The position numbers were made by a program, and so were the translations under genes. From Paraspadella gotoi (Eukaryota > Animalia > Chaetognatha), in NCBI GenBank assembly GCA_051294375.1, contig CM119263.1, positions 1,352,510 to 1,416,509 on the forward strand: a stretch of DNA of 64,000 nt, read 5' to 3'. The notes below the pieces were generated by a model. It was not told the origin of the DNA, did not search any database, and saw only the letters and a program-made list of their open reading frames with translations. This document shows, piece by piece, positions 29,110-32,100 of the stretch (position 1 is its first letter; the number at the start of each line of letters is the position of its first letter).

Positions 29110-32100
29110 TCAACGCCGCAATAATCTTTGACAAATAATCCTTTGAAATGCTCTTCGAAAATCTTGGTTGAAAATTGTGTAGATAACAGGATTCAAAGAG
29201 CTGTTGCAATAACCCAACCACCAAAATATGGAGCCGATAACCTGATTTCGGGTAGTAAGTAAGATTAGTTAAATAAGACTAAGTTAATAAAGTAATAAAG
29301 TTAACTTTTGTAAGTCACAACTTGTCTCACCAGTGGCGGTTTTGGACAGGAAGGACAAACTCCGTTGATAAGGTAGGTTGAAAAAAAGGGTAGCCAGCAC
29401 GCTGTACAAATAAAAAATGGAACATACGTTAGTAGTCGTTAGTACTACGGCATTCTTTATCTTTGTTCGTTCCCTTTGTTTGTAACTCTTTCTCTCTCGT
29501 TTCAAAAAAAAGAAAAATTTTTGAGAAAAACGAAGTATAAACTAATATTTTTCTCTGTTAACTTCAACTTAAAACCTTATAAGTGTAAGGATCGTCGCAA
29601 TCGCATAAAAAAAAAATATGGACCCATGACAAACTTTGATAATCAAAAAATTAAATTTGATATAGTAAAACTAAGTTTTATATATAACAAATTTGGTTTA
29701 ATATATAGAAGTATAAAACCAAAAGGGATATTCAATGACAGATGGATAAAAATAAAATATCCGGCATTGTTGGCTCAAACTTGTCAGTTTTTAGGTGTCT
29801 TTCTCAGGTCATTGACTGACAAAAGCAACGGCGACGACGACGATAATACCGACGAAGATTGAATGATTGATTATCTTATTCATTGATTGATTCATTAATT
29901 TCTTAATGGATTAATCATTTAATTAATTGATGAATTACTGCAGCTTGCATTTTTATTTATTATAAAAAAAGCATAATCAAATATTTAAATAGGTTCATTA
30001 TCATTAGCTGATCAAATTAATTAAAAAAAGAAAAAAGTTAAATTAATTAATAAATTTTTTTTTCATTTAAACTCATTTCCACTTGGACGAGTCAATTAAT
30101 TGATTAATTCAGCTTGCATTTACATTAATATAAGCAGATTCGGTTAAAAATGAGATAAAATAATTTGAATAAAAGTAATAACAATTTAAAAAAAATTAAT
30201 AATAAAAAAGCTAAAATTATAAATTAGAGAAAATGTAAGAGAGCTGAGAGAGAAAATAAGAATAAAAAATGAAATCATTAAAATAAAATGACTTGAATGA
30301 ATGAAGAAAAAAAAAGAAATAAATTTGCATATTATAGTTTAAAACATTAGAAATATAACATTATCGTTTTTAAAGAACATCGATGATGAGAAACCATATC
30401 TAAATTTTGAGCCTCATACAATTACGAATAATATGTAAAAAGGAGATTTATAAATTGGAACGCCGACGACAATGACGACGCCGTCTGTCGGGTCCATCGT
30501 CAGAAAAACTTGTTTATTGAACCCTAACCGATAAAATTATGGAAAATTCACTATTACTTTGTAGGGACGCCATTTTTTTTTTTTTTTGGCATTGATTTAC
30601 CCGTGAACGTTATCATGACGATGCCAAGGACGAGAGTAGTCCGTCTCTCTTTGGCACGCGCCAATCTTTTCTTCTTTTTTTGTTGGGACTGCGTCAAGAA
30701 ATCCCGAGGAAGCGATGAGACGCTTATTATTGGCTTCAATTCTAGATTCGGAGACGACTGCACAAAAATAAACTTTAAATTCAATATTGTGGCGGTATAT
30801 TCACACCGCCTCACGTCCACCATCCTTCAGCCAAATCCATTGGCTCAGAGGGGGAACACACCATCCCAAGTGTAGTGTTCCATCCACAGTCCTAACGACT
30901 TCCCTCTGCGTTGGCAAAGCGAGACCGTCCTAGGGTAACCGCGCCAGTGACTGGAGGCGTCACTGAGGGTCGGAAGCCCCCAAAGCCAACAGTGAGATGC
31001 CCCATCCCAATGGGCATCACAGGCAACCCGGCTGTTGCCATAATATTCTATTTAAAAATTTTAGCTCGGTTTATTTGCCACATTAAATTTAATGGGCTTA
31101 AGAACATTACGGTATGAGAATGAGTTAGTTTAAAGCGAATATGAGCATATTTTTTGTTTTGTCAACGATGAGTTAGTCTAGTTATAAAATCACAAACCCA
31201 TCCGATTTTTCTTAAACTACCATCCCACCGAACGAACTCACCTCCGAATCCACCACCGCCCGCAAACTCTGCGTGGAAAGGTATCGTTCGCCTCCGAGGT
31301 TCGGCACGAGGGTGGGGACTTGAATGAAGAGCGACTCGGGACGGTCCGCCTTCTTCTCGGCCCCATTGCAGCCGGAAGCGTTGAGACTGAGGCTCGACGA
31401 AGCGGCGACCAGGGTCTTGAGGGCGACCGACTCGCGGAACGCCTCCTCCGGCGAGTTCTCGCATCCCTCGTCCGACGCGATGCTCGAAGTGGGACTCTCC
31501 ACTTGAAGAACCGGGGGTAAGGGAAGCGCGCTGGGGTGTGGCAAGGAACGGCGATGGAAGGGGAACGAAGGGGCGGAGAGGCCGTGGAGCGAACTAGTTC
31601 CGTCGGTTATCTGAAGAAAAGATAGGACTTTTATGTTTCTATTGAATTTGATGGCAGCACAAAAGAATTTACAATTTAATGGAAGCAAAAAATATTTATT
31701 GGAATTCACAGGTTTCCGTTTCGTGAGAGCCGTACGTCCTATCACGTGAAACTGTTTAAAAAGAAACAGAATTGTGCGAAGCTAACCTTTTCGATGCCAT
31801 ACGATGGCTCGTGGGAGGGAGAATTGGAAGAAATGTTTGAGCATCCGTAAATCCCGGATGACATCTCGATTTGGATTTCAGTTGGGTGAAGTTGAGTATC
31901 TAATTAATAAAAACGGGAAAAAAATCGGCATTTGTATTTATGCATTAATAAATTAAATTTTAATTCTGAGAAATACGACGCGCGTCGCAATTTATTACCT
32001 TTGTATTCTTTTCGAACAGATAGAGATGGCCCGAACCGTAATCTCTGTCAAAAAAAATGGACGCAGTTGTACTCGTGAGGATAAGAGCGGATTTCGCTGA

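Follow-up and report, generated by a model that had tools for sequence, protein, structure and literature searches.

The window analysed here, a stretch of 64,000 nucleotides (nt) from the chaetognath Paraspadella gotoi (assembly GCA_051294375.1, contig CM119263.1), contains at 30788-31042 a solo long terminal repeat (LTR) from a retroelement family present in many copies, with insertions in the hundreds, and this LTR carries a predicted type-P5 twister ribozyme. We call this family 1; a complete short element at 20.6 kb, family 2, has the same arrangement in both of its LTRs. We propose that the twister likely cuts the element RNA once in each LTR and that replication would pass through a unit-length, probably circular RNA, as in the LTR retrozymes of plants, a reading to which we give a probability of roughly 0.6. 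That the family 1 element is an LTR bearing a twister fold is far more secure than this replication route, and we hold it with high confidence.

Ends and terminal signature of the family 1 repeat

Logan contigs of four sequencing runs were aligned to positions 30640-31200. Runs X2, X5 and X9 come from organism A, X5 and X9 being two studies separate from X2, which may be the source of the window's DNA, and X10 comes from organism B. Loose ends are listed for 19 of 605 classes and joints for 15 of 84, and variants were listed from 2% upwards. The repeat is covered by 8953 contigs in X2, 2447 in X5, 514 in X9 and one in X10, with depth confined to 30788-31042. Among the classes listed, the biggest on the left ends before 30788 (at least 73, 39 and 16 contigs in X2, X5 and X9) and the biggest on the right behind 31042 (at least 93, 52 and 11), and X2 has secondary classes exactly 4 nt outside, at 30784 (46 contigs) and 31046 (40 contigs). 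The family is therefore defined as TGT...ATA with a target-site duplication (TSD) of 4 bp. The window sequence by itself leaves the duplication ambiguous, as it admits six registers of 4-6 bp; the loose-end classes fix it at 4 bp, and the 5- and 6-bp registers were rejected. An earlier sequence-only reading of this stretch had described a 255-bp element with a 4-bp ATAT duplication and had named variable ends without such a duplication as the observation that would speak against it; the ends are sharp and constant in the three runs of organism A and the duplication is upheld.

The listed X2 classes comprise at least 162 contigs on the left and at least 203 on the right, in three classes each, and because their AT-rich flanks are heterogeneous we count at least about 200 insertions or alleles; the summed contig depth, about 10^4 times that of the flanks, is not a copy number. 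The G+C content is 58% in the LTR and 43% and 32% in its 200-nt flanks. The 64-kb window holds no second family 1 copy, and none of the 15 joints listed (of 84) is an empty site of this locus. The window copy has the minority letter at 30869 and 30871, where 80% and 94% of the X2 summed depth differ. The flanks in the loose-end lines suggest a target preference, a central TA within G...C, at low agreement (0.4-0.5), to which the family 2 site (20596-20600 / 21253-21257) conforms.

Published sources are cited here and below for those parts of them that were available. CsRn1-like elements have a 4-bp TSD, TGT...ATA or TGT...AAA ends and a tRNA-Trp primer-binding site (PBS) (PMC2582038), and their att motifs are TGTGGYG at the 5' end and MSYYAMA at the 3' end (Table 3 of PMC3601003). 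Family 1 matches these motifs at 7/7 (5') and 5/7 (3') positions and family 2 at 6/7 and 5/7. The single X10 contig (depth 6, one difference in 192 nt) passes 31042 into a PBS, that is, with the repeat as a 5' LTR; scored on the published CsRn1 12-mer rather than on a host tRNA, this site matches at 11 of 12 positions, as does that of family 2. The 4-bp TSD is seen in family 1 by the loose-end classes and in family 2 by empty paralogous sites, and a polypurine tract (PPT) is seen in family 2. Family 1 bears the signature of the CsRn1 clade (Ty3/gypsy) in its ends and primer site, and we place it there by terminal signature because gag-pol was not found in the frames scanned: no retroelement protein family appeared among 13 + 99 window frames (99 of a list of 125, low-complexity and short frames being excluded). 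The window contains no tRNA gene.

A repeat of another kind, namely a short interspersed nuclear element, a miniature inverted-repeat transposable element or a Penelope-type pseudo-LTR in an AT-rich site, would agree with a window copy that is solitary and whose duplication is ambiguous by itself, and twisters are known on non-LTR elements (PMC8501958). We consider this very improbable: both ends are sharp across flanks numbering in the hundreds, the classes listed include neither a tail nor a 5' truncation, and there is the class 4 nt outside, the CsRn1 att motifs and, in one contig, a PBS directly after the 3' end. Moreover, the sister element, family 2, has two LTRs, a PBS and a PPT.

A predicted twister in two LTR families

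The twister class was reportedly described by Roth et al. in 2014. In family 1, helices P1, P2, P4 and a closing P5 are present in P5-permuted order: P5 pairs 30910-15 with 30985-90 (6 bp), P2 pairs 30919-22 with 30939-42 (three pairs and a C·A), P1 pairs 30929-30 with 30934-35 (2 bp), and P3 and P4 have 7 and 3 bp. The L1 core, U^AA (30936-38) opposite G-A (30923-24), is present as well. Two pseudoknots start from loop L4, T1 joining 30925-27 to 30971-73 by three Watson-Crick pairs (the fourth position being U·U) and T2 joining 30943-44 to 30976-77 by two. A descriptor written after the motif had been seen, which demands U^AA, GA, T1, T2, P2, the P3-closing pair, P4 and P5, matched none of 20,000 dinucleotide shuffles of the family 1 LTR. 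It found five loci in the window (the family 1 LTR, the two LTRs of family 2, a third family at 20548 and an AT-rich locus at chance level) and five in total in 60 window shuffles; the AT-rich matches at 51991 and 35631 were rejected as chance level. The LTR RNA is more stably folded than shuffles (z -4.5, 0/200; z -3.3, 2/200). The words AATAAA, ATTAAA and TATAAA are absent from the LTRs of both families, which fits RNA ends set by cleavage instead of by capping and polyadenylation. An exact 32-mer was not found in the metagenome scans, and viral contigs gave no match; a gapped twister pattern gave 35 metagenome loci that were rejected as chance, as none of the 35 has both P4 and P2 and none matches the LTR by BLAST.

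Family 2, described from the window, resembles a terminal-repeat retrotransposon in miniature (TRIM). Its TSD is fixed by empty sites in two paralogous copies of the element it entered, and the longest stop-free frame of its 184-bp interior has 89 codons. The interior contains, at 20876-20960, a direct duplication, imperfect and about 47 nt long, that has small hairpins, and the stretch just after the PBS is alike in family 2 and in the single X10 contig of family 1. At about 46105-46225, on the minus strand, lies a diverged fragment like both ends of the family 2 LTR, in which the twister region is absent and which ends in ...CCATA as family 1 does.

The LTRs of the two families have no primary similarity, 454 of 1000 shuffles aligning equally well, and they share the clade signature, the 5' hairpin and the position of the ribozyme, the predicted cut lying 106 nt (family 1) and 102 nt (family 2) from the LTR 3' end. 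P3, P4 and P5 differ in sequence yet still pair, and T1 co-varies between the families by one swapped pair. The lack of primary similarity, the pairing of P3, P4 and P5, the T1 covariation and the common design of a hairpin followed by a P5 twister had been read correctly from the sequence, with the proviso that the covariation amounts to a single pair. The description of the families as unrelated does not stand: both have CsRn1 att ends and a Trp-type PBS, so they are not independent evidence of convergence, and the two are probably distantly related, with one type of machinery serving both. A vestigial P1, claimed for both, is found at 20.6 kb and not in family 1, where P1 is a 2-bp hairpin. 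Twisters in the LTRs of several families had also been suggested; this holds for the two LTR families, and the third twister of the window lies on a different, probably non-LTR element. A reverse CCAAT word stands 40-52 nt from the 5' end of both LTRs (30839-30843 and 20640-20644) and recurs in diverged family 1 copies; it is a candidate promoter element, possibly an NF-Y site.

The third twister belongs to a repeat at 20477-20600 and 21253-21320, with further copies at 20238-20335 (+) and 47669-47808 (-). It lies near the 3' end of this repeat, which has a partial tandem tail, and the family 2 insertion lies 10 nt downstream of the twister. In each of the three twister families of the window the two pseudoknots are complementary, with pairs swapped, the third family swapping T1 and T2. 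The repeat is probably a Penelope-type pseudo-LTR. It is possible that its twister was the source of the LTR twister, and its 5-nt P1 resembles that of family 2.

Table 1. Features of the twister-bearing elements in the window
Feature	Position	Strand	Basis
Solo LTR, family 1 (255 bp, TGT...ATA, CsRn1-type att ends)	30788..31042	+	Loose-end peaks at both ends in three runs; att match 7/7 (5') and 5/7 (3')
Left 4-bp TSD (ATAT)	30784..30787	+	Window sequence and loose-end classes
Right 4-bp TSD (ATAT)	31043..31046	+	Window sequence and loose-end classes
5' hairpin, 6 bp	30791..30810	+	RNA fold; without listed variant among copies
Predicted type-P5 twister, family 1 (P5, P2, GA, T1, 2-bp P1, UAA, T2, P3, P4)	30910..30990	+	Descriptor, helices, variant pattern; Rfam twister-P1 matched weakly and in part, 15.2 bits, E=1.4
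Predicted cleavage site U^A, 106 nt from LTR 3' end	30936..30937	+	Analogy to twister L1
Family 2, complete TRIM-like element, non-coding (two LTRs of 234 bp that differ at one site, 184-bp interior, TSD ATAG)	20601..21252	+	Window sequence; empty sites
Predicted P5 twister, family 2 5' LTR (cut 20732^20733)	20708..20783	+	Descriptor and helices
Predicted P5 twister copy, family 2 3' LTR (cut 21150^21151)	21126-21201	+	Descriptor and helices
Family 2 PBS, Trp type, 11/12 to CsRn1 motif	20836..20853	+	Motif comparison
Family 2 PPT	21006..21016	+	Sequence
Third P5 twister	20548-20590		Rfam Twister-P5 29.9 bits, E=0.0064, under gathering threshold 37.6

Copy variation, proposed replication route and genomic setting

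Among the X2 copies 27 variable positions are listed, 15 of which reach at least 5% of the summed depth. Of these 15, 2 lie among the 162 paired or core positions and 13 among the 93 free ones (p=6e-5); inside the twister the counts are 0 of 62 constrained and 3 of 19 free positions (p=0.011). These p values are indicative only, because the test uses summed contig depths and positions that are not independent, on a fold predicted from one copy. At the 2% level the counts are 8/162 versus 18/93 and, inside the twister, 3/62 versus 6/19, the three constrained positions all being CpG sites. No variant is listed at U^AA or at GA. Selection on the twister fold is thus indicated.

The sequence-only reading had regarded P2 as damaged in this copy by A30922. 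No variant of at least 2% occurs at 30922 or 30939 in any of the four runs: the C·A mismatch is the state of the family and not a private lesion, and the interpretation as a decayed copy was rejected. In the published scan of the twister Osa-1-4, single mismatches in P1, P2 and P4 were often tolerated and T1 pairs were mostly swappable (PMC5113685). The equivalent C9·A44 mismatch, in combination with six second changes at loop positions 16-17, had a relative activity of 0.81-1.00; for a swap of the 26-48 pair the value was 0.74 (columns of the published matrix counted by hand; PMC5113685). This end-point measure hides slower rates, according to its authors (PMC5113685). Since the mismatch is the family state and is tolerated in that scan, the window copy is not broken; Schistosoma twisters with an impaired P1 also still cleave (PMC8501958). 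By this analogy the family 1 twister is likely active, possibly in an attenuated form.

We propose the following route, in which the passage through a circle is the published model for plant retrozymes (PMC4918200). The transcription start would lie within the first ~120 nt of the 5' LTR or upstream of them. A cut in each LTR would release a unit RNA that has no terminal redundancy and bears 5'-OH and cyclic-phosphate ends, which a host ligase could join. Because minus-strand transfer normally needs a repeat, ligation into a circle would be the simplest way to restore full LTRs: without an R region, it would let a tRNA-Trp-primed reverse transcriptase run from U5 into U3 with no first strand transfer. 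The Gag-Pol of a CsRn1-clade element, its own or that of a helper, would copy the RNA and integrate the complementary DNA (cDNA), and recombination between LTRs, or short cDNAs copied from the circle, would produce solo LTRs. That the cut lies at almost the same distance from the LTR end in both families, and that the three signal words are absent, fits this route. Speculatively, a weak core and a competing fold could let the circle persist, as plant retrozymes keep their hammerhead in a blocked fold (PMC4918200).

Several observations weigh against this proposal, in addition to the limits of the variant test. For the ribozyme, no match at Rfam gathering level to the twister clan exists in the whole window; the Rfam twister-P1 model covers just the P3-P4 half of the family 1 twister (15.2 bits, E=1.4), and Rfam finds nothing for that of family 2 at E<=10. 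ViennaRNA, which treats no pseudoknots, favours a competing fold by 9.4 kcal/mol (-31.5 versus -22.1) and gives probabilities of 0.05 for P2, 0.01 for P4 and 0.0 for P1 in family 1. P4 has just 3 bp, the fourth T1 position is not a Watson-Crick pair, and two T1 pairs are swapped together, a combination that was not read from the published matrix. For the element, family 1 is known as an LTR plus the single PBS contig, with no PPT or interior seen, and this contig, of depth 6, is from the run of another organism and may be contamination. Some copies seem to lack or replace the twister region, as indicated among the joints listed by 30914-30981, 30898-31017 and 30870-31004 at about 1-2 times flank depth. 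For the circle, the putative 418-nt RNA of family 2 is not more paired than shuffles (54% versus 57%; energy z -2.6); this lies below the >70% quoted for retrozyme-like RNAs (PMC4918200) and does not support the circle route.

Some of these observations would suit a twister that is a mere passenger, acquired in a single capture, for example from a terminal repeat of Penelope-like type such as that of the third twister family here, and by now weak or silent in an ordinary TRIM whose fold is intact as the family is young. Such a history would account for the weak P1, P2 and P4, the competing fold and the lack of recognition by Rfam, for family 1 copies with the twister region missing and for the twister-less family 2-like fragment at ~46.1-46.2 kb. 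We nevertheless judge it unlikely, as two unalignable LTR families keep all core nucleotides, both pseudoknots and the same position in the LTR, and common variants avoid core and stems. The window copy, moreover, has the antisense orientation within its host intron; in sense orientation the ribozyme would cut the pre-mRNA (a single case).

Alternatively, an active twister might make only the 3' end of a linear RNA: a start inside the 5'-LTR ribozyme would disable that copy, and the 3' copy would cut in place of polyadenylation, leaving a short R for strand transfer. Neither LTR has a poly(A) signal; in the P5 layout the P5, P2 and GA-T1 strands all lie within 27 nt upstream of the cut, and R regions of ~10 nt are known in other LTR elements (PMC3601003). 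This would, however, oblige the start to fall ~8-27 nt from the cut. Variants also avoid stems in the structured 120 nt upstream, which suggests that these are transcribed as RNA, but U3 at the 3' end is transcribed under either model. We regard this restricted role as improbable, to the same degree as the passenger. Cleavage in both LTRs, our preferred reading, could also be part of something wider, ribozymes in LTRs being a trait of the CsRn1 lineage itself. Autonomous Gag-Pol elements would then have an uncapped, non-polyadenylated circular genomic RNA, with ligation replacing R-dependent first strand transfer, and twister TRIMs would be their satellites; this extension is tentative, and we would sooner bet against it than for it.

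On the minus strand, a gene for a rhodopsin-type receptor has a predicted intron from 31220 to 30758, and the family 1 LTR stands antisense inside it, 29 nt away from the acceptor site. Two exons of this gene (35114-35437 and 34279-34638) match 7tm_1 strongly, and the exon adjoining the LTR gives a weak 7tm_1 match in the expected order (E=0.27, profile positions 184-215) and a 5-HT1A-like match (E=0.36); the gene is predicted to be amine-receptor-like. An exon at 22613-22825 matches uridine-cytidine kinase-like 1, the named matches being all from animals at 66-73% identity (best 120 of 1003). Host genes with very short introns occupy 4100-15200, 16500-18750 and 21800-28500, among them a bHLH protein with long low-complexity exons, an E2 ubiquitin-conjugating enzyme, an IQ/Dpy-30-motif protein, UCKL1 and an MLF-family gene. 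In contrast with this compact, gene-rich first half, 34000-64000 is dense in (AG)n, purine-rich simple repeats and minisatellites.

Comparison with known ribozyme-bearing elements

Known ribozyme-bearing retroelements comprise hammerheads in plant LTR retrozymes and Penelope repeats, hepatitis delta virus-like ribozymes in LINEs (long interspersed nuclear elements) and twisters at RTE 5' ends (PMC7761336, PMC6765202, PMC7936874, PMC13725137, 10.64898/2026.07.22.740005). Nothing further on this was found in the available parts of PMC11721086, PMC12471100 and bioRxiv 2022.07.19.500677. The word ribozyme is absent from PMC3601003, no searched paper joins it to CsRn1, and by the terms searched the supplements of PMC3601003 and PMC8220671 contain no CsRn1 LTR nucleotide sequences. 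In the literature searched, with subscription papers largely outside it, neither a twister in true LTRs nor a ribozyme in CsRn1 LTRs was found described. A prior description is possible, because those papers are mostly uncovered, because there is a hint of insect elements, and because the retrozyme field may have mentioned ribozymes in LTRs of CsRn1 type. The hint, in the available text of a review, concerns unpublished insect elements with type III hammerheads (PMC7761336).

As a ribozyme, the family 1 motif shares with the type-P5 twister (Rfam RF02684) the U^AA, the catalytic GA, the L4 UNNNAAGC, two pseudoknots, P2, P3, P4, the closing P5 and the P5-permuted order (PMC5113685). It differs in scoring under the Rfam thresholds, in two swapped T1 pairs, in the C·A of P2, in a 2-bp P1 and in a 3-bp P4. 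As these twisters escape Rfam, comparable ones may be widespread yet have gone unnoticed. The T-variant twisters of Perere-3/RTE also have a reduced P1 and are tied to a retrotransposon RNA end, but they stand at the 5' end of a LINE with the TSD as P1, whereas here the twister is internal to a true LTR and occurs twice per element (PMC8501958). As elements, both families agree with members of the CsRn1 clade (PwRn1, AgCR) in the 4-bp TSD, TGT...ATA ends, TGTGGYG att motif, tRNA-Trp-type PBS and an LTR within 146-409 bp (PMC2582038, PMC3601003); the clade has gag-pol, with a CHCC motif in Gag, whereas the families here are placed by terminal signatures. The TRIM of ants, PbTRIM, is likewise an animal element with 4-bp ATAT-type TSDs and many solo LTRs, and differs in its Leu PBS; no ribozyme was met in the available text, in which that word was not searched for (PMC3532108). 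Animal non-LTR retrozymes share the animal host and ribozyme-bounded units but have type I hammerheads and neither LTR, PBS nor PPT, and the hammerheads of Penelope pseudo-LTRs also occur in animal hosts (bioRxiv 10.64898/2026.07.22.740005).

The closest parallel is with plant LTR retrozymes, which have a ribozyme in each LTR, a 4-bp TSD, a Ty3/gypsy-type PBS and PPT, a short non-coding interior (here in family 2) and solo LTRs (Cervera, Urbina, de la Pena 2016, PMC4918200; PMC7761336). Unlike the present elements, with an animal host, a predicted P5 twister, a Trp-type PBS and LTRs of 234-255 bp, they have a type III hammerhead, a tRNA-Met PBS and LTRs of 300-400 bp, and their circular RNA was demonstrated, whereas the families here are known from DNA sequence (PMC4918200). 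We would therefore call the twister LTR elements retrozyme-like in their working and not class them as plant LTR retrozymes, as they have neither the hammerhead nor the tRNA-Met PBS of that class. The ribozyme-and-circle route for such LTR elements was found described only in plants and only with a different ribozyme. A twister inside true animal LTRs breaks both divisions drawn in the papers available up to 2026, that between plant LTR elements with hammerheads and animal non-LTR elements, and that which confines twisters to the heads of LINEs; it suggests that this route is open to LTR elements generally, the ribozyme being exchangeable. It also points to a helper lineage (CsRn1), an exact predicted cut and a 418-nt unit, and so allows the reverse transcription of circular retrozyme RNA, long proposed, to be tested in an animal. 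Families 1 and 2 would in this comparison be the twister-bearing, CsRn1-type animal counterpart of the plant LTR retrozymes.

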